Part shown: piece by piece, positions 11,053 through 48,603 of the stretch
How positions within the stretch are numbered: the stretch's first letter is position 1
Layout: the number at the start of each line of letters is the position of its first letter
Source of the DNA: Eledone cirrhosa
Lineage: Eukaryota
NCBI GenBank assembly: GCA_964016885.1
Contig: OZ024741.1
Span: forward strand, 381,610,001 to 381,674,000
Length of the DNA stretch: 64,000 nucleotides
Direction of reading: 5' to 3'
Program-made: the position numbers and the translations under genes
The notes under the pieces: generated by a model
What the model saw: the letters and a program-made list of their open reading frames with translations, nothing else
Database searches by the model: none
What the model was told of the DNA's origin: nothing

Positions 11053-11715
11053 TCACCTTTCAGCGAATTTACTGGGTTGTATCACCTCTCTCTCCACTCT
11101 CACCTTCCTTCTGAAGTGATACTTAAAGAAGGGGATAAGATGTTGTCCGGAGAGAAAGGTATTTGCCCTCAGTCCTTTTAACCTCGTCCACCATATTACC
11201 TTTTTCGCCATAGCCACCAGACAGAGGAAAACCGCCTCTACTTCGTTCTTAAATGAAGGCGGCGGGGTTTTCCACACGATGGACTCGGCCTACAACTGGA
11301 TGCGTCCCACACGTGACTGCAGCTGTTCGACATAATTCCACAGGTTGGTCACCCCCTGGGCACTGAACAATTGCATGCAGAACGGTTTCGATGTCCTGCT
11401 CGCATCTTGGACAGGTCCTTTCGGCAGGATCTCTGACGGCGTCCGTGCCTCTAGATTTTGTCTCGAACTGGTAGAGATCCTCGGCAGCACTGCCAGGCCA
11501 GAGACCTCTGGAAGTTATCCATAGGCCCTGGACGGAAAGTCCTCCCGAACAGTTGGTCAGTTCGACCTCCTCGATGCCTAGAGTTTCCGCGAGAACGTCG
11601 TCGCACTTATCCTCCATTAATCCCCTATAGCATGTCGAAGTGGAGTCTCCGCTGATTGCCGTTTCCGCTTGGCAGATACTGTGAGCGCTTGTAGGCATTC
11701 GAGGTGCCAGGCGTG
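11053..11715 (-). mobile_element. Second L1/Tx1-type LINE ORF2 C-terminal fragment
   Basis: CPRCEQDIETVLHAIVQCP (zf-RVT CCHC) and AMAKKVIWWTR; paralogous to 9760-10500. Confidence 0.8.
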
Positions 11716-11875
<160 letters not shown>

Positions 11876-11929
11876 GGATAGAGGGAGGGGGGGAAGAGAT
11901 ATCTCCTTTGGGAAATCCCCTGGGTGGTT

Positions 11930-12930
11930 TTGAAGATGTCTGATTTTGCTCTTGTTCCTGTTGTTGGTGGTACTTCTGCTACTTGTTTTGCTGATGTTGG
12001 TGTTGCTGTTGGTGTTGCTGTTGCTGGTGCAGTTGCTGCTGACGTTAATGTTGATGCCGCTGTTGTTGCTCACTAATGGTGTTGTTGTTTTTGACGTTGG
12101 GGCTCTAGAGTTGGCAGGAAGATGTTTCTGTTGTTCCCTGCCACCTGTTAAATGCAGAAATCTCTAAAGTGTTTACTCTCCCTACACGGATGTGAACAAG
12201 GTATATTTCCCTCAAATAAGTCATGTAAATCCACTCATCTCAGAAGGCAGATGATGTGTGGGAGGGATGTTATCCATTTTGTCTCTGTTAATCTGGAGGA
12301 GTCTCTCCAAACAGTTTCCGACAATTGTCCTATGTGTGTTCGATTTATCACTAGCGGGATACCATTACCGTCTAGGACGACGCAGATATTCACTTCTGCT
12401 GAAATCTCGGAAATTCTGACCCTTACTAGTTTACTCACAAAATATGTAAAGACAAAAGTATATTGTAATTTCGACATGATACGATAGAGCCTGGTTCTAG
12501 CTTTGTGCTCTATGTCGGGCATTATCTCTTTCGGTGCTCTTTCTGCTTCGCCTTGAGACACTGGCTCTCGCCGCCTCGTCTTTAGAGACAGGCATTTACC
12601 TCCCAAACCTTTTTCTTTCGATGAGCGAAATAGTTTCGTGTAGGTCGCTACGTTAGCCCATACGTTTTCTAATTTGATTAATGTGGTCGCTTGGTCCAAA
12701 TACGAACCCTTATCTAAATTGTTTGTATTGAAATTTTCCGTTGGTTTGACAGCCATAGGTGCAAATGTAATATTGTTATTGTTGCTAGTGTTATTGTTGC
12801 TGCTCATATTGCCATTGGTGTTGTCTTTGATGTTTATGGTATCATTGTTAGCGTCATTGCTTTGTGATGGTGCAGTTGCTTTTGTTGTTTTTACTGCTGC
12901 TGTTTTTCTTACCGCAGACGACTGAGGATT
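11930..12930 (-). mobile_element. L1/Tx1-type LINE ORF1 remnant
   Basis: ORF 12235..12807 is ORF1-like (LVRVRISEISAEV); degenerate Cys/His knuckle near 12150-12200; Asn/Thr-rich (AAC)n tracts. Confidence 0.6.
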
Positions 12931-14010
12931 ACCCTCAGTAGCGCTAGACTGGCGTGTTAGAGACGCACGAGTTCAGCCATGCTGGGGCCGAGTTGGTGGT
13001 GATAACAATCTACCATCAAGGCCGGACATCTCATCCAAAGATGTTCAGAGGATTCTTCTTCCTTTCCACACAGACGGCATTTGTTTATTTCCGCTTGGCC
13101 GATCATATGGAGCCATCTCCTTAATGACGTGTGATGTCCACTGCGGAAGCGGACGAGATGGTTCCTATCTGCTTTGGAGAGAGTTTTCTCACTCTCTTTA
13201 TTTGGGTGGGGGCTAAAGACAGACTGTAGGCGTTGATGCTGAATCGGTGGTGGGCGAAATTTCCGGCGAAGGACGGCGCGTCGGGTGGCGGCATCGATTG
13301 AACTTTCCAGTTGAGTAGATGCTGAGCCTTGTTTCGCCTGGGCGTCCCCCAGTTCATTCCCTTTGATGTTGCAGTGTCCAGGGACCCAGACAGCTTCTAA
13401 GGTTCTCCCTTTTGTGATTTTGTTAGCGATCCCTTGCAGCTCGGTAATGAAAGGGTCATGGAGGAAGGGGTTGTTGACTGCTTGAACCAGCGTCTTGCAG
13501 TCAAAGATGACATTGGAGGACTCCCAGCTGGTGTCTGCCTGTAACCATAGGAGGGCTTGTTTGAATGTAATTCTTTCGGAATGAAAGGAACTGCTACGAG
13601 CGCCCGTTGCAGCGTGCCACTCGTGAACTACTTCTTCATTTTGTATGATTACAAGACCGGCACCGCATTTGGTTGTACCGGCGCAAGTTGATCCATTGCC
13701 GCTTTAAGTTGTAGTGCTAGTGGCATAGATTTGCACACCGGGTAAAGGTAGCAGGGATTGGTGGTGGTAATTCCCACGGCGGATTCTTATGTGGTAATTG
13801 GGTGTCTATTGTCGATGGTATGCCAAGACGATCAAGGGCTGGCAGCTGTCTACATCGCCAATCAAGACGGCCGAGTTGGCGTCTTACGTTAGCATTGAGT
13901 AATTGGTTTCAATGATCGGAGGTGGGGAGGTGTGCCCATTCATCCGCTTTCAAGAGGAAGAGAGCATGAAAGCGGCATTCCAACGGTGGAAGGTGTGCTT
14001 CAATTAGGAC
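12930..14010 (-). mobile_element. RNase H-containing LINE 3' fragment (I/Ingi-like)
   Basis: Minus-strand translation GSTCAGTTKCGAGLVI...SSSFHSE...VIFDCKTLVQAV matches RNase H motifs (DGS...GAG...AE...DC). Confidence 0.75.
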
Positions 14011-27634: not shown

Positions 27635-28410
27635 CCTGTAGTATGTATAAATAGTCTCGTTTTTACCGAACATTTATTATAATGCTCGGCTTGTTTGTAA
27701 ACAAACAAACAGCCCGAATTAAGCCGTACAGTCTTTAGCAACCATCGTTGCCCCCCTGCCCAACACTGACAAAGGAACGATGTACTAGTTTCAAGCTTAT
27801 TATCTATTGTCAGCATCGTATACCTTCATGCCAGATGATTTCTGGCTTAATTGGGGCTGTTTGTTTGTTTACAAACAAACCGAGCATTATAATAAATGTT
27901 CTTTAAAAACGATACGTACATATATATGTGTGCATGTATGTATATATATACATACTACTGTACGTCTGTATACATATATGTATGTACGTATACATACTTA
28001 TATTTAAGTAACAGCCGGACTAAGAGTGAGAAATGAAATTTCGTTTCATTTTTTCCATTTATCGTTTTCGGTGCGCCCAGCCGTCTAACTCACTCGATAT
28101 ACAAATTAGGCTACTCAGCCGTTAATATGCATAAGGAATGTACATACTTTCAGACGTTCAATCATCTGGCAGGAAGGTATACGATGCTGACGATAGCTAA
28201 TAAGCTTGAAACTAGTATATCGTTCCTTTGTCAGTGTTGGGCAGGGTGGCAACGATGATTGCTAAACTCTGTACGACTTAATTCGGGCTGTTTGTTTGTT
28301 TACAAACAAACCGAGCATTATAATAAATGTTCGGTAAAAACGATACTATGTATACATACTACTGTACGTCTGTATACATATATGTATGTACGTATACATA
28401 CTTATATATC
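27635..28410 (+). mobile_element. HHR-containing tandem repeat (retrozyme-like), locus 1: inverted 5' fragment plus about 1.3 monomers of 431 bp
   Basis: Period 27846 to 28277; inverted copy at 27635-27835; same family as 46120-47330. Confidence 0.85.
28181..28223 (+). ncRNA. Type I minimal hammerhead ribozyme, intact core
   Basis: Helix I ACGATG/TATCGT, CTGACGA, stem II AGCT-AATA-AGCT, GAAA, palindromic ACTAGT, GUA cleavage triplet. Confidence 0.9.
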
Positions 28411-35289: not shown

Positions 35290-37320
35290 ACTTCATCCAA
35301 AGATTATGGCTCATATAGCTACATGTTTGATGAACTAATTGATAAGTAAAGAAAGATCATGTGATTAGGCATCCAATTGTTTGGTAATTTCGGTGGTGAA
35401 TTTCCATCTTGTTTCTGAGGGAGAGTTTCATTTGCCGTATGTACTCTATGTTACACCCTTTACATTTAATGACAGATATCATACTGTTTTGAACAGGTGA
35501 AATTATCTTTTTACAAAATATGTTTTTCCTGTTTTAAATTTATAAATTGTGTCTTTAATTAGAGTAATGGAAATTCCACAATTAGTATGATCACACATTT
35601 TGACTGGTGGTGTTGCGATTGTGGTGGGTAGTTGGCACTGGTGATGAGATTTGTACCGATTTGGGTTGTCTTGCTTTTGTATATTTAAGGTGTTTCGAGT
35701 ACAATTTCAATTCCTTGGTTTTGACTTATTCTTGTGGATAATGTTGTATGACTCGGTATTTATCGGATTGTGTGTTGATATATAGGGAAGAGAATTAGAT
35801 GTATCTGGAATTGTTTTTGCTATATCGTTATGCTTGTATGATTATTGCTTTGTATGATTATTACGTTGTCTATTTATAAAGATGGATACTCTCTGTTTAG
35901 TGGAATTTGTTTTAGTTCTTTAATTATGTTTATTCCGAGATTTATAACGTGAGACAATTGTTCAGTTTCTTCTTGGAAGATTAAATCGAATATTTGTCTT
36001 CCTGTCTTTTGGATGGCTTGAGCTAAATAGTAATTATTGTTGAGAATATGTTGCTTTGTGGTGATTGGCAGGTATGAAATTTGGTTTTGACTGTAATCCA
36101 TTATGTATTGGATATCATTATTGATGATGTTAATTAGGGTTTTACATTCATTGAGCTGGTCGTGTGCCTGCGACCATAGAATGAGGCAAGTAACGTTACT
36201 AGTTGGCTAGGAAGTTTTAATGTGGATTATTCATATATCTGTACTTGCAGGTATGCCATGTCTAAACTAGCTTGGGTCGGGGCTACGTCTGTGTCCACTG
36301 CAGTACAAAATATTGGCATCGAAACAAAAAAAATGTTTTGTAGCATGAAACTTAATCATTCAGTGATGAAACCTTTTCTATTCATTCCGGGATTGTATTG
36401 TGTAATTATTCAAGCAACAATCATATTGCTTCAAGTATGTATTTGTGTATGATCTTAGTCTAGAATTTACTACATCAAAAGATACAATAGTGGTGTTGCT
36501 GTTGACGTGTTTAGGCAGATGATTAAAGAGGTGCGAATGATCTCTCATAATGTTTGGTAGATTTTCAGAATTGGTTTCAATATTATGTCTATAAAGTTAC
36601 TGTTTGTGTGTTTCACAATTTGGGCTCGCTACAATTGGTCTTAATTTAAGGTCATTGGGGTGTTGTAAGTTTATACAGGTTCTAGTGGTATCCTCAGACG
36701 TTTCAATCAAAACGTGTTAAAAAATGGCAATCTATTATTTTTTTTTTTTTTAAAGCTAATTAGAATGTTGGCAGACGATCCTGTTCAGTCTAGTCATCGT
36801 GTTTGACTGCTGGTAAATGTAAAAATGTTCATCATATGTAGTGAATTGTTATATTTTTTAACACCCATAATGAAGATAGTACTTCCCTTAATCACATCAT
36901 GATTATTCTTTAATTTATGGATATTTCCAATTAGATTCAGCTCGTGTTGGATTAAGGTTTAGGCTGTGGTAGTTCAAATATGGTATGTTGTCATAAAAAT
37001 TGTCAAAATCGTTATTCCCACCATTCATAGGTTTGTAGTTATTTTTATTCCGAACAATTTACTAACCATTGTTTACCTTGTTAAAACATTATTCAGATAC
37101 GTGTATTTTTTTTTTTTTACCGAAGTGTGCAGTAACGTCCTGTATCTCATTGAAGTTGGGTTACTGTGGTGTTGGAGTGAATATTAATCCCTTAGAGAGT
37201 ATTTCGATTCGTTGGTGTGATAGATTTACATTCGATAGATTGATTAATTACGGTTTTTCATAATTCGGTTGTAGCACCGAATGTTATGGATTTTGTCGTC
37301 TTCGAATAAACAATTAAACT
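35290..37320 (-). mobile_element. Degraded Neptune-type PLE (RT plus GIY-YIG)
   Basis: LKLRPIVASPNCETH, VSFDV, TAVDTDVAPTQASLDMAYL and IKCKGCNIEYI on the minus strand. Confidence 0.8.
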
Positions 37321-37696: not shown

Positions 37697-38970
37697 TAAA
37701 TTTCTTTAAGTCGTTTGGAAGCCTCGACAATGCAGATGGGTAAATCTCCGGGTAACAAGATCCGGTGGTGGAGAGAGAGATGTAAGTGGGTGTACGTTGA
37801 GATGCGTGGCGTGTATAAGACTGTAACGTTTAGAGGAATGAAGGAAAGAACGTAAAGCATGAAAATAAAAATAACAACACGAGAAAGAGTTACCTTGGGA
37901 GAGATTTAATTGTCCCTATATATTTCGGATACACATCCATCAACTGGATTTTTCCCGGGGGTGGGGGTGGGGAAGGTTGTTTGTCGGAAAGGTGCGAAAC
38001 GTGTCCGCCGCTGTTCGCTGTTTTGAATATCTGAGGTATTCAGCAGAGCGCGCGTGCGCGTGAAATGGGGTCGGTCAAACAGAGGTCAGCGATCGAAGTA
38101 GTTCTTTCAATTGTGGGAATGGGGTGGCGCTAGCTGTCACGCCATTATCTGCCTGTTTTCCAACCTTGTCTAAAATCTGTGGCAAACTCCCTCGAGCCTC
38201 TGCCCTTCTAAAATCCCGGAGAGCTCAATTTGCTGGCCACTGTCACCGTGCCAGCAATGAAATCATATCCGCTCTCTTGCTCTGGAACCCTGACTCCAGC
38301 CTGACCAGGAGTAGGAAGCTGTCATTCCCTGACGTTATGTCTAGGGATACGGGAATCAGTAGACAGGACCTGGGGGCAGCGATGGGGGACGGGGAATTCT
38401 GGGGCATAAGAGTGAGATCCATCATCTCGACAGTAGTCGACGAATGATGATGATGATGTTCGTATGGTGGAATGCTACTGTGTGTGTGTGTGCGCGCGTG
38501 TGTTGCTATATCGCTTGTGTGTGTGTACATGTGTTGCTGCATCGCTTCTGTGTGTGTGTGCGCGTGTTGCTGCATCGTTGGTTAACTTAAACCAACCACC
38601 TCATTTCGCTTCTCTGGGATCGGTTGTTTAGTTGTCGCCCTAGGCGTTTGATCCAAAGTGCTTCCGTGATAAGTAACGTGTCGACGTTTCTTTCTGTCGC
38701 TAGAATTGTGACAATGGGCCTTCGGGCTTTGTTTCCGCATTTGGCTACGTGTTTCCGGAAAGACGAGACCCTGGTTTTAGTGTGTTCCTTGATCCGGATG
38801 TGCAACGGCCGGATTGTGCTACTTATATAGTATTGGTTGCACTTGTTACATTCTATCTTTTACATGACATATGTGCGTAGGCAACAGTTCGCATGACGCA
38901 TCGGACAGTCTCTGATGGAGCACGCGTCAGTTGATTTACCGGGTTTCCTGGAGAGGCATCTTCGCAGGGA
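37697..38970 (-). mobile_element. Inverted copy of the PLE EN domain and 3' UTR
   Basis: Diverged reverse complement of 39979-41006. Confidence 0.9.
38160..38458 (+). mobile_element. RTE-type LINE 3' fragment with (TGA)n tail, inserted in the inverted PLE arm
   Basis: RRAQFAGHCHR...LLWNP...GAAMGDGEFW; absent from the right arm. Confidence 0.8.
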
Positions 38971-41006
38971 TTGAGGCCCATTGTATCGAGCGTGGAAGGA
39001 CCACTCTACAAAATTTCATAGCTCCTAGCCCGAATACTCCAACCCATCTTAGACACCTTGCCGGGACACGTTAACAGCTGCGAGGAGGTGTTGAAGCGCC
39101 TGCATCAAATGGATCCCGACACCAGAAAGAATCACAGATATGCCTTCAACCTTGATGTAGTCGCTCTCTACACCTCGGTCCCGGCACTCCCGGCCGTCAA
39201 TATACTGATGAAACGCGTCCAATCCATCGACCTACACTGCTTCGGGCTCACCACCACTGACATCCACCAACTCCTATCCATCGTCGTCAACAACCCTTGC
39301 TTCGGATTCCTTGACCAAACATACCAACAAACCTCGGGACTGCCCATGGGATCAAGACTGTCGGGTGTAATAGCGATCTCTTACATGGACAGCCTCGAGC
39401 ACAAGGCACTCAACGCCTGCCACCCCAACGCCGCCGCCTTTTTCTCAAGGTACGTGGACGATATCCTAATCCTCACATCATCCCAAGACATTGCGAACAG
39501 AATCTATGAGACGTTCAACGACACGGACGAAAACATTGAATTCAGTGTTGAACACCCCAACGACGACGGGTTACTTGCCCTCCTCGACTTCCGAATCAAC
39601 ATCACGGAACAGGGAGGGAACCACTGAAACTACTACCGAGAGGCAGCCTGCAGGGACCTGTTCCTCCACTACAAGTACGCCCTTCCTAACAGTGCCAAAC
39701 GAGGATACATCACGAACAAGATCGCGCGAATCAAAAACAGATGCAGCGATCCCGCGAGTTGTGTCACACATACCAAGCGATTCCTCGAGGTGCTGCAGAC
39801 GAACAGGTACCCTACCTCGCTCACAGACAGAGTAGGAGCCACCAGACACAAGAGACAGAGAGGCAGCCAAGGCAAGTGATTCCTTAAAATGCCACACCTG
39901 GTCGAGAATACCACCAACGCTATCCGCAAGGCTATACGGTGGGAGGGCCTCGACATCCACCTGGCCCACTCGGGCCCCTCCCTGCGAAGATGCATCTCCA
40001 GGAAACCCGGGAAATCAACTGACGCGTGCTCTTTCAGAGACTGCCCGATGCGCCATGCGAACTGTTGCCTACGCACATACGTCTTTTATAAGATAGAATG
40101 TAACAAGTGCAACCAATACTATATAGGTAACACAACCCGGGCGTTGCATATTCGGATCAAGGAACACTAAAACCAAGGGTCGTATTTCCGGTAACACATA
40201 GCCAAATGCCGAAAGACGGAAGGCCCATTGTCACAATTCTTGCGACAGAAAGGAACGTCGACACGTTACGTATCAAGGAAGCACTTTGGATCAAACGCCT
40301 AGGGCCACAACTAAACAACCGATTCGAGAGAAGCGAAATGAGGTGGTTGGTTTAAGTTAACCAACGATGCAGCAATACACGCACACACACACACACAAGC
40401 GATGCAGCAACACACACACACACACCCACACACAGTATTATTCCACCATACGAACATACTACACTGCCAATACAGAGGAACAAGGCAATAACACACGAAC
40501 ACACACACACACTCAAGCGAGACAACAACACACGTACACACACAGTAACATTCACCAAACAGGCAGATAATGGACTGACAGCTAGCGCCACCCCACTCCC
40601 AGAATTGAAAGAACTACTTCGGCCGCTGACCTCTGCCTGACCGACCCCATTTCACGCGCACGCGCGCTCTGCTGAATACCTCAGATATTCAAAACAACGA
40701 ACAGCGGAGGACACGTTTCGCCCCTTTCCGACAGACAACCTTCCCCCCACCCCTGCCCGGGAAAAAGCCCCCAGTTGATGGATGTGAATCAGAAATATAT
40801 AAGGACAAGGTTACTCTTTCTCGTGTTGGTATTTTTATTTTTATCCTTTACGTTCTTTCCTTTATTCCTCTACACGTTACAGTATTATACACGCCACGCA
40901 TCTCAACGTACACCCACTTACATCTCTCTCTCCACCACCGGATCTTGTTACCCGGGGATTTACCCCTCTGCATTGTCGAGGCTTCCAAACGACTTAAAGA
41001 AATTTA
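38971..41006 (+). mobile_element. 5'-truncated Penelope/Poseidon-type PLE (RT plus GIY-YIG), with stops and frameshifts
   Basis: LRPIVSS, NLDVVALYTSVP, QTSGLPMGSRLS, RYVDD, LLDF; YKIECNKCNQYYIGNTTRALHIRIKEH. Confidence 0.92.
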
Positions 41007-45616: not shown

Positions 45617-46119
45617 GACAAACAGAAAGAGAGACCAAGAGATAAGGATAAGGAAAATTGATAAAGAGAGAGGTGGAAAGAGTAAATAGAGTTAGTGAAG
45701 GGGAGCTCAATCTGAAAAATGGTTCATTTGATTTTGTTTATTATTTTGGTGTATATTTTTACGCATTTCTCATCGTATGACAAAAAAGCTGATTAAACTG
45801 GTCTGAAGTGATATATAAAACTATACATTGAAATAATATTTGTAAGACGAAATTGAGTTTATTAGAATCAAAGTGAAATACCATGTGTAAACCTTGTCTT
45901 TCTGAGACTTTTAAATCAATCACCGTCCATTACAATAGAGATTATTATTCAGCAAGGTACAATATCTGGATATTAATTATATAGTTAGAGTCACTATAAA
46001 GTACAGTTCCCTCTCAAACTATAGGATGCTGTTAGCATAAGAATATATTTGCATTATTGTTTGCATACACACACACGTATATATATATATATATATAAAT
46101 GTATTACATATATATATAT

Positions 46120-47321
46120 TAATGGAAAAAATGAAATTTCATTTCTCACTCTTAGTACGGCTGATACTTAAATATAAGTATGTATACGTACATACATATA
46201 TGTATACAGACGTACAGTAGTATGTATATACATACATACATGCACACACATATATATATATATATGTACGTATGGGTTTATCGAACATTTATTATACAAA
46301 CAACCCGAATTAAGCCGTACAGTGTTCAGCAACCTTCATTGCACTTTTGTTCAACACTGACAAACCGTTAATATGCATAAGGAAAGTATATACATTCAAA
46401 CGTTCAATTGATTGAAAGGAAGGTTTACGGTGCTGATGACAGCTAATAAGCTAGAAACTAGTACACACATATACGTCTGTATACATGTATGTGTATGTAC
46501 GTATACATACTTATATTTAAGTATCAGTCGTACTAAGAGTGAGAAATTAAATTTCATTTTTTCCCTTTATCGTTTTCGGTACGCCCGGCCGACTAACTCA
46601 CTCAATATGCAAACGTTCAATCTATTGAAAGGAAGGTATACGGTGCTGATGGCAGCTAATAAACTAGAAACTAGTTCATCGTTCCTTTGTCAGTGTTGAA
46701 CAAAAAGGGCAACGATGGTTGCCAAACATTCTACGGCTTAATTCAGGCTGTTTGTTTACAAACAAACCGAACATTAAAATAAAAGTTCGATGAACACATA
46801 CGTATATATATATATATATATGTATATGTGTGTATGTATGTATTTACATACAACTGTACGTCTGTATACATGTATGTGTGTACGTATACATACTTATATT
46901 TAAGTATCAGCCGTACTAAGAGTGAGAAATTAAATTTCAGTTTTTCCGTTTATCGTTTTCGGTACGCCCGGCCGACTAACTCATCCGACGTGCAAATTAG
47001 GCTGCTCAGCCGTTAATATGCATAAGGAAAGTATATACTTTCAAACATTCAATCGATTGACAGGAAGGTATACGGTGCTGACGACAGCTAATAAGCTAGA
47101 AACTATTTCATCGTTCCTTTGCTAGTGTTGAACAAAACAGCAACGTTGTTTGCCGAACACTGTACTGCTTAATTCGGGCTGTTTGTTTACAAACAAACCG
47201 AACATTATAATAAATGTTCGGTAAACCCATACGTACGTATATATATGTATATGTGTGCATGTATGTATGTATACAAATACTACTGTACGTCTGCATACAT
47301 GTATGTATGTACGTATACATA

Positions 47322-47330
<9 letters not shown>
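46120..47330 (+). mobile_element. HHR-containing tandem repeat (retrozyme-like), locus 2: inverted fragment plus three HHR units
   Basis: Cores at 46433 (CTGATGA), 46646 (CTGATGG) and 47078 (CTGACGA); full period 432 bp; inverted fragment at 46120-46363. Confidence 0.85.
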
Positions 47331-47380
<50 letters not shown>

Positions 47381-47384
<4 letters not shown>

Positions 47385-47935
47385 GCTCCACATGGCTGAA
47401 TACAATAAATGTAATCTGAGTTTTTCGAATATTAATTATAATATTCGATTTGTTTGCAATTATGCATACAAGCCTCATCTTTAAAGCCATGTCAGCAGAA
47501 TGAACCCCTCATTCTTGCTCTTGTGTTGGCATGTAAACTGAACTGAAGACACTAATGTTTCTGGGTGTGATCCTTCATCAGTACAGTTCACTTTTCACCT
47601 GCCAACTGTTAAAGCTAGTAAAAATATATATTCTCTAAAATATAGAGTGACATATCGGCCTGATTTGCATATTAGCACACAGGCTAATCAGTCAGATCTG
47701 CATATTATCAGATCCACTGATCACCCAGATTTGCATATCAGCCGACTGGCCATTCAGTTTCCTGTATACGAGCGATCAATGTCGGGCTTGGTCATGAACA
47801 AGAATTAGGAGGTCATTCTACTGACATGGCTTTAAAAATGAGCCTTGTTTGCATAATTGCAAACGGAACGAATATTATTATTAATATTCGAAAATCTCAG
47901 ATTACATTTATTGTATTCAGCCATGTAGAGTGAAT
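47381..47935 (-). mobile_element. Small element with ~125-bp inverted ends, an internal HHR and an octamer cluster
   Basis: 47381-47508 is the inverse of 47808-47935; ATTTGCAT at 47663 and 47729; ATCTGCAT at 47696. Confidence 0.75.
47540..47589 (-). ncRNA. Type I hammerhead ribozyme
   Basis: GAACTGTA-CTGATGA-AGGATCACACCCA-GAAACA-TTAG-TGTC-TTCAGTTC; helix I 7 of 8 bp, GUC triplet, short stem II. Confidence 0.7.
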
Positions 47936-48603
47936 TTTTTTTTTAATATATCAACAAGGGTTAGGACATTCATGCACTAGATATTATGAGAGCATTATGA
48001 AAGACAAACAGAAAAATGATGGTACAAACGCACACCTGAAAAAGTGCCATAAAATGCCAAAGCAACGATTCTTTGGCATATGCCAATACATATAAACAGA
48101 AATATGAAGGCAAAACGACCAGATATTATAGTCAAAGATCACAAAAATAAAATGCCTTCTAATTGGTCTATGAATCAACACAGACAACAATATATCTCCC
48201 AAGCGAATGGAGGAAGTCTTTAATTATGAAGATTTAGGGATAGAAATAACCTGAATCTTAAAATGAAAAGAGAGACAATACCTATAATAATAGGTGATCT
48301 AGCAATGATAAAAACACATAAAAATACATAGCCCAAACCCCCAAAAATGCAAATATTTACACCATGCAGGGATAAGTTGTATAACGTCAAGTGCTTTTCT
48401 CATATTACGTCATAGTTAACATTGCATAATGACCAATTCTACCCAGAGATAATCCACCAAATTTAAACATATATATATATATATATATGTGTATGTGTGT
48501 GTGTGTGTGTGAAGTATTTCCGGTGGAAAGGTAAAGGAAAAGAGAGTGCTCTATGTAGGCTACAGAGCTTTTAATTTATGTAATAAACAACGTAAGATAA
48601 TTA

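Follow-up and report, generated by a model that had tools for sequence, protein, structure and literature searches.

Two hammerhead repeat loci in the window

The 64-kb stretch of DNA analysed here, to which we refer as the window, carries two related loci of a non-coding hammerhead repeat, locus A at positions 46118-47331 and locus B at about 27635-28407. Locus A opens with an inverted arm (46118..46364, minus strand) that corresponds to unit positions of about 10-276 and whose outer end at 46118, the 'tail' terminus, abuts a (TA)n tract at 46078-46119. On the plus strand there follow a 5'-truncated fragment with hammerhead 1 (46365..46463; unit 332-430), a rearranged unit with hammerhead 2 (46464..46676; unit about 172-318, then 367-430; core at 46646), a full unit of 432 bp between cleavage positions that ends in hammerhead 3 (46677..47108; core at 47078), and a terminal partial unit (47109..47331) that ends at the 'short' terminus, near unit position 220, and after which a further (TA)n tract (47324-47382) comes. 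In locus B, an inverted arm (27635..27840, minus strand; boundary approximate), whose outer end does not lie at a standard terminus, carries a broken hammerhead (core starting at 27813), and about 1.3 direct units make up the rest on the plus strand. These are a direct arm (27844..28217; unit 56-430) and a terminal partial unit (28218..28407), which ends at the 'short' terminus and whose TA-rich hairpin has lost about 30 bp.

A first-pass annotation of this DNA had described a period of 431-432 bp, and this is borne out by the distances between markers (46758 to 47189 and 27871 to 28302, 431 bp each) and between cores (46646 to 47078, 432 bp). The hammerhead elements and the cleavage position after 28217 that it had read are likewise present; each locus does begin with an inverted piece (46118-46364 in locus A, about 27635-27840 in locus B), and locus A does lie in (TA)n. 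Its statement that each unit carries the motif went too far: only one of the five cores in the window is complete (+28187). This sole complete hammerhead (28181..28223, plus strand; predicted cleavage after 28217) comprises a 6-bp helix I, CUGACGA, a U·U juxtaposition followed by a 4-bp helix II, an AAUA loop, GAAA and the palindromic ACUAGU. The other four are damaged. Hammerhead 1 has an intact core (46433), and a discontinuity at the cleavage nucleotide 46463 deprives its helix I of the 3' strand; the core at +46646 reads CUGAUGG (A9 changed to G) and has one broken helix II pair; that at +47078 has lost G16.2; and that at -27813 reads CUGACAA (G8 changed to A), again with one helix II pair broken. 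The jump at 46463 might be taken for the record of a cleaved RNA end; we rejected this idea, as the cleavage site has no surplus of breaks (2 real ones in 199 versus 0-2 per 85-161 at four control positions).

As neither locus contains two intact ribozymes in tandem, neither could itself give rise to the RNA circle proposed in the first-pass annotation, and both are probably dead, decayed copies. Two consecutive complete hammerheads, the feature by which 'active' retrozymes are recognised (10.64898/2026.07.22.740005), are absent from the window loci and present elsewhere in the family.

A separate peculiarity of locus B is that the hairpin deletion of about 30 bp is common to its inverted arm (27635-27782) and its terminal direct unit (28273-28407), and that the internal unit does not have it. 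Reverse transcriptase (RT) skipping the folded hairpin on its first pass, a mixed template or conversion could each be responsible.

The ribozyme and the size of its family

In the 3.0-Gb genome G000, the exact 31-letter core pattern has 12,043 matches and its reversed control has none; the copy-number check suggested in the first-pass annotation consequently shows that the motif is not a product of chance. A 16-mer outside the core has 14,636 matches. The unit is about 430 bp long and non-coding, with a GC content of about 36%; ATG frames in the three units scanned reach 52 aa at most, and no RT/GIY-YIG open reading frame lies within the unit. A tRNA-derived SINE was considered and dropped, no tRNA being found in any of four loci. 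Consecutive intact motifs occur in arrays at L031, L140 and L212, and seven motifs lie together at C4:287.98 Mb, three near C1:11,021,400. The repeat is also present in four sequence runs of unknown kind, which has no bearing on expression.

A pattern that requires the core together with a different helix II returned 5,774 matches (control 9), and 96 of the first 100 listed represent the motif of a sister family. This family has a 468-bp unit, about 5,500 or more cores and a canonical G10.1-C11.1 pair, and its unit is collinear along the whole length with that of the window's family (alignment score 326 versus 130 +/- 11 for shuffles). Its two termini are the same ones, it has arrays of very recent origin such as L212 (G000:C1:30831300-30841290), and it is better suited to assays than the window's family. 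Its ribozyme matches the Rfam model Hammerhead_HH9 (RF02275) over the whole model (E=2.2e-8), with 37.7 bits and hence below the gathering score of 52. The ribozyme of the window's family has no hammerhead match in Rfam, and no hammerhead is found among the 150 of 165 Rfam matches listed for the whole window, in which microsatellite matches dominate.

The type I core (CUGANGA, GAAA, UH and an open-ended helix I) is found in the family, and in full in one of the five window cores. Its geometry, a 6-bp helix I with an extension, a helix II of 4-5 bp and a 2-bp helix III with the palindromic loop, is that of canonical metazoan type I hammerheads as presented in PMC4209133, from which dimer-dependent cleavage is predicted. 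The term 'minimal' used in the first-pass annotation therefore does not apply, as the minimal hammerheads of Penelope-like elements (PLEs) in Schistosoma have a helix II of 7-8 bp and a helix I of 4-5 bp (PMC4209133). The palindromic ACUAGU is predicted to form a 6-bp intermolecular duplex of -6.8 kcal/mol; since it is common to both families, dimers across families are conceivable.

Overlooked in the first reading was the pair that closes helix II. G10.1-C11.1, called highly conserved in PMC4209133, is replaced in the window's family by U·U or C·A, and is G-C in the sister family. Positions 10.1 and 11.1 are unpaired in 7 of 12 aligned natural copies. A mismatch at this place may slow cleavage, and a hammerhead lineage of 12,000 copies that lacks G10.1-C11.1 is a natural variant worth assaying. 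Further subfamily states are C or U at N7 and A or U at position 17, with C17 in a sister variant. G17, with which a hammerhead is inactive, is rare (97 matches to a slightly wider pattern).

The helices vary in a compensatory manner. In 12 natural copies, which come from few and related lineages, both sides change in three of the six helix I pairs and in four of the five helix II pairs, and 94% of all cells still pair. The covariation of these 12 copies is 0.424, versus 0.188 for shuffled and at most 0.122 for slid alignments, and two of the four shuffle-tested measures are no better than shuffles (150 and 431 of 500). Selective conservation of the core across copies, the absence of which the first-pass annotation had named as contrary to its proposal, is not significant within the window's family (0 of 15 core versus 28 of 254 other columns polymorphic, P=0.38); such a result would be expected if most differences arose after insertion. 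Identity of all 15 core positions between the two families is imposed by the search pattern and is not evidence. Judged by its sequence, the source lineage likely encodes an active, dimer-dependent ribozyme. The loss of G10.1-C11.1 speaks against this, as does the report that eight of nine retrozyme dimers from Xenopus did not cleave (10.64898/2026.07.22.740005).

With the non-LTR retrozymes described from metazoans (coral, mussel, axolotl; PMC7229834; 10.64898/2026.07.22.740005), the family has in common a non-coding tandem monomer with one type I hammerhead per unit, a GC content below 50%, thousands of copies, PLEs in the same genome and a strongly self-paired predicted circle in which helices I and II are formed. 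The predicted circular folds of two natural full units have z scores of -9.2 and -6.6 versus 40 shuffles each, and this low folding energy is partly due to the TA-rich hairpin. The family differs from these retrozymes in that its monomer of 420-470 bp lies at or above their 150-450 bp, in the U·U or C·A at 10.1-11.1, and, as far as the published descriptions go, in its fixed PLE-type double termini and inverted arms. No title or abstract that we found describes this family or a rule of end pairing in retrozymes; published supplements could contain motifs from cephalopods or the variant at 10.1-11.1.

Insertion anatomy and the template of copying

For an assessment of how the repeat is inserted, contig C1 was sampled at the first 100 occurrences of the 16-mer; 56 loci were read, with flanks of about 1.5 kb for 16 and about 3.5 kb for 40 of them, and the last 6 clusters listed were left out. 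Once alignments confined to the TA-rich part had been dropped, 64 clusters were counted. They reveal two fixed 3' termini, 'short' at unit position 220 or so and 'tail' at about 276, which lie about 56 nt apart. One of these fixed 3' ends is present in 27 of 31 one-armed clusters, with scattered 5' ends. Two-armed clusters number 33 of the 64, and in 24 both outer ends lie at fixed termini; all 24 (up to two of which are duplicates within L157) combine one short with one tail end, and none has the same terminus twice. A second set, made up of 30 loci and the two window loci, contains 7 short-plus-tail cases among 18 two-armed clusters, and the sister family (28 loci) contains 14 among 16, again with no same-same pair in either. 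Locus A, with its tail end at 46118 and its short end at 47331, obeys the rule, and the same short and tail arms in (TA)n are found in the coding PLE insertions L101 and L103. The inverted fragment that the first-pass annotation had noted is accordingly the regular second arm of a PLE-type insertion and not a chance product.

Insertions thus start at two internal sites and not at the cleavage site, a correction to the first reading. Of 105 unit starts, 98 run on across the cleavage junction, and 5' stops at unit positions 1-8 amount to 6 of 105 (one of them a duplicate) versus about 2 expected under uniformity, a weak excess at most. Of 83 fixed ends, 73 have a (TA)4 no more than 25 nt away; for truncated ends the count is 9 of 31, and for bins of the background the share is 9.9%. 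Target-site duplications are hidden because the ends lie in (TA)n.

The hallmarks of a PLE passenger, 5' truncation, a partial tandem, an inverted 5' copy and a tail at one end, are all present. EN+ PLEs (PMC8557442, PMC11167929, PMC4209133) are similar in these four respects, and also in the hammerhead upstream of the 3' termini and in targets that are (TA)n or rich in AT; PMC8557442 describes both the one-sided tail and the inverted 5' copy for PLEs. The repeat is unlike EN+ PLEs in that it contains no open reading frame, and in that its tail measures about 56 nt (70 in the sister family) versus the 30-40 given for PLEs. Chlamys MRC1-type elements (PMC8557442) provide another parallel, as they are PLE passengers that code for nothing, possess pLTRs and insert as several copies head to tail; those elements, however, resemble autonomous partners at their 3' end, and their clade is described as being without canonical hammerheads (PMC8557442). 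Taken together, this anatomy makes it highly probable, as far as sequence can tell, that the family is mobilised by PLEs, and supports the class assignment of the first-pass annotation, a non-LTR retrozyme moved by PLEs. We deal with a novel non-LTR retrozyme family that has a variant helix II closure and very likely is mobilised by EN+ PLEs. Our overall reading, to which we assign a probability of roughly three in four, is that this high-copy non-coding hammerhead repeat represents a retrozyme whose copies are made in trans by a Penelope RT/GIY-YIG protein with (TA)n targets. The link between retrozyme and PLE chemistry comes here from the anatomy of the insertions, not from co-occurrence.

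These findings lend themselves to the following model for the trans-copied retrozyme. A tandem locus would be transcribed, and two hammerheads would pair via their palindromic ACUAGU and then cleave. The resulting unit-length RNA would be ligated into a structured circle, possibly by an RtcB-type activity as put forward in PMC7229834. A PLE protein would cut both strands of a (TA)n tract, and cDNA would be primed from each cut on the same RNA, once at unit position 276 or so and once at about 220. Each RT would run past the cleavage junction for a variable distance, and the two opposed 5'-truncated multi-unit arms would then be joined. That a PLE protein cuts and extends both DNA strands from two internal RNA sites bounding the tail has been reported in PMC11167929; a difference in start site between the strands was not seen in the in vitro work described there. 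The strict pairing of short with tail, which that work did not show, is a constraint on the PLE mechanism.

The movement of animal retrozymes, and whether circles serve as their template, are stated to be open questions (PMC7229834, 10.64898/2026.07.22.740005). In diagnostic columns, the median mismatch is 0.06 between opposite arms (41 clusters) and 0.08 between tandem units (51), versus 0.33 between loci (8,998 pairs). The 6 inverted and 12 direct complete units of L212 are all one sequence, and in six other sister arrays units within an arm differ by means of 0-3.2, versus 3-30 (median 15) between loci. Copying from a heterogeneous linear multimer should leave variants in common between units of equal rank in the two arms; in the pooled data, position-matched variants are not in excess (123 of 331, P=0.15; 7 of 28, P=0.43). 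These results fit a single monomer per insertion, likely a circular one, and a circular monomer is in our view somewhat favoured as the usual template. The rolling-circle copying proposed in the first-pass annotation agrees with the homogeneity of the units, which does not prove it; a homogeneous linear multimer, gene conversion or smoothing during assembly could also be the source of unit identity, and some arrays have been enlarged at the DNA level, as in the higher-order repeat L249 and the GUG array L260. The template switching also proposed there suits locus A alone, an outlier with mismatches of 0.29 within the arm and 0.45 between arms, which makes mixed templates plausible at this place; both L016, with an excess of position-matched variants (40 versus 19 and 14), and locus A look like mixed templates. 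Two RNA molecules held together by a ribozyme dimer, one for each arm, were considered and rejected as a rule, since the arms have haplotypes in common; 4 of 41 clusters, with arm mismatches of 0.27-0.45, may be exceptions to the use of one template.

A more far-reaching reading of the circular RNA, which we consider less likely than not, is a double rolling-circle retrotransposition, in which a dimeric Penelope protein would work on one circular ribozyme RNA with one start site for each cut strand. Both RTs would circle on the same template and thereby produce opposed arms of up to 13 identical units, and the passenger would lack homology to the pLTR of its host element and owe its recognition solely to the shape of the RNA. 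If true, this would explain the one-sided tail of PLEs and provide direct support for circles as templates of retrotransposition.

The most serious competitor retains the PLE-driven insertion and replaces the template by an uncleaved linear multimer transcribed from young homogeneous arrays, so that circles, if any, would be by-products and the hammerhead would trim transcripts or act as a protein-assisted switch. Its appeal derives from PLE insertion assays in which ribozyme mutants still insert, no reads ended at the cleavage site, hammerhead cleavage is dispensable and unprocessed RNA is the main substrate (PMC11167929). The lack of enriched breaks at the cleavage site and the position-matched variants of L016 point in the same direction, as would slow cleavage caused by the 10.1-11.1 mismatch. 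The pooled three-way test, however, uncovers no positional inheritance, and units are far more alike within an insertion than between loci, with up to 18 identical ones; moreover, without a circle or a later expansion, daughters should never be longer than their parent. We hence regard the linear multimer as rather unlikely to be the template. The family-wide anatomy makes the question of a circular template testable, and the presence of young identical arrays and recent long-frame PLE families in one genome renders an in vitro test practical.

Coding PLEs, satellite arrays and neighbours in (TA)n tracts

The genome contains 10,595 GIY-YIG candidates, of which 150 were scored and 50 loci read. 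These 50 loci fall by protein identity into at least six families, the larger ones mostly being 90-98% identical within. Frames with RT and GIY-YIG have lengths of 477-938 aa, and three of the four frames scanned carry both domains.

A second alternative sees in the monomer simply the pLTR of a coding PLE, and in its copies the 5'-truncated ends of that element. Such an origin is not without precedent, as 24 of 57 retrozyme families in Xenopus are reported to be homologous to known repeats, nearly all of them PLE termini (10.64898/2026.07.22.740005); the architecture of our insertions is fully PLE-like, and the GIY-YIG loci scored and read are a sample of the candidates. Against it stand the head-to-tail arrays free of any open reading frame beyond the short ATG frames noted above, and the distribution of coding sequences. 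No pLTR homologous to the monomer was found in the 50 PLE loci read; the monomer occurs in three of them as a separate insertion, outside the PLE's own pLTRs. Conversely, PLE coding sequence is present in 3 of 56 repeat loci and never upstream in register, and among 35 loci with a variant core a single one has a PLE open reading frame, which lies beyond the 3' end of the repeat and is not joined to it. The case named in the first-pass annotation as contrary to its proposal, in which the monomer would be no more than the pLTR of a coding PLE to which it is attached, was encountered in none of our samples, and we judge this alternative to be quite improbable. Strongly disfavoured is a spread at the DNA level, as a satellite or foldback element whose hammerhead would be a fossil or a product of chance: two-armed insertions do resemble terminal inverted repeats and the arrays at L249 and L260 are long and expanded as DNA, but the two inverted ends differ from each other in a constant manner, a fixed 3' end goes with scattered 5' ends in 27 of 31 one-armed copies, and the helices covary.

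These two arrays merit a description of their own. L249 (G000:C1:95645500-95655400) is a satellite of a sister variant with other helix II pairs, a GUC triplet, at least 20 units and a higher-order periodicity of two and nine units; two variant cores 4.2 kb apart had at first suggested a pLTR-ORF-pLTR arrangement there, which proved to be this array. L260 (G000:C3:12270000-12287500) is a long array of units of about 510 bp that all have a GUG triplet, and is likely a dead retrozyme expanded as satellite DNA. Ten further loci (L250-L259) have single hammerhead-like motifs with ACUAGU and a varied helix II, are similar to neither family, and contain no PLE open reading frame within about 4 kb.

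Some coding PLEs carry hammerheads themselves. L092 (G000:C1:145868000-145877500) is a pLTR-ORF-pLTR element with an open frame of 938 aa, and both of its pLTRs have a hammerhead with a U3-A8 core variant and the palindromic ACCGGU. In another coding family (L095, L096, L099, L103 and L106), the hammerhead also has U·U at 10.1-11.1, and the short and tail ends lie about 50 nt apart in (TA)n. Decayed relatives are found in the window. Positions 38620-40251 hold a 5'-truncated RT/GIY-YIG copy (plus strand, 38956-40251) that shares about 52% identity with the L102 family and whose own 3' part is repeated in inverted orientation just upstream; a second decayed coding fragment, at 35396-37313 on the minus strand, is 33-39% identical to the L092 family. 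The broken frames at 11252-13703 (minus strand), one of which matches RNase H and zf-RVT, likely are the remnant of a non-LTR retrotransposon.

Directly past the (TA)n tract of locus A lies an inverted-ended element (47365-47951) with ends of about 83 bp (47365-47447 and 47869-47951), and the same end also flanks L008. Several further sequences that recur border on the (TA)n tracts used by the repeat, in the flanks of L005, L027, L031, L032, L045, L055-L057 and L101, in those of L010, L022, L040 and L059, and in those of L016, L021 and L039, which suggests that more (TA)n-targeting families stack at common sites.
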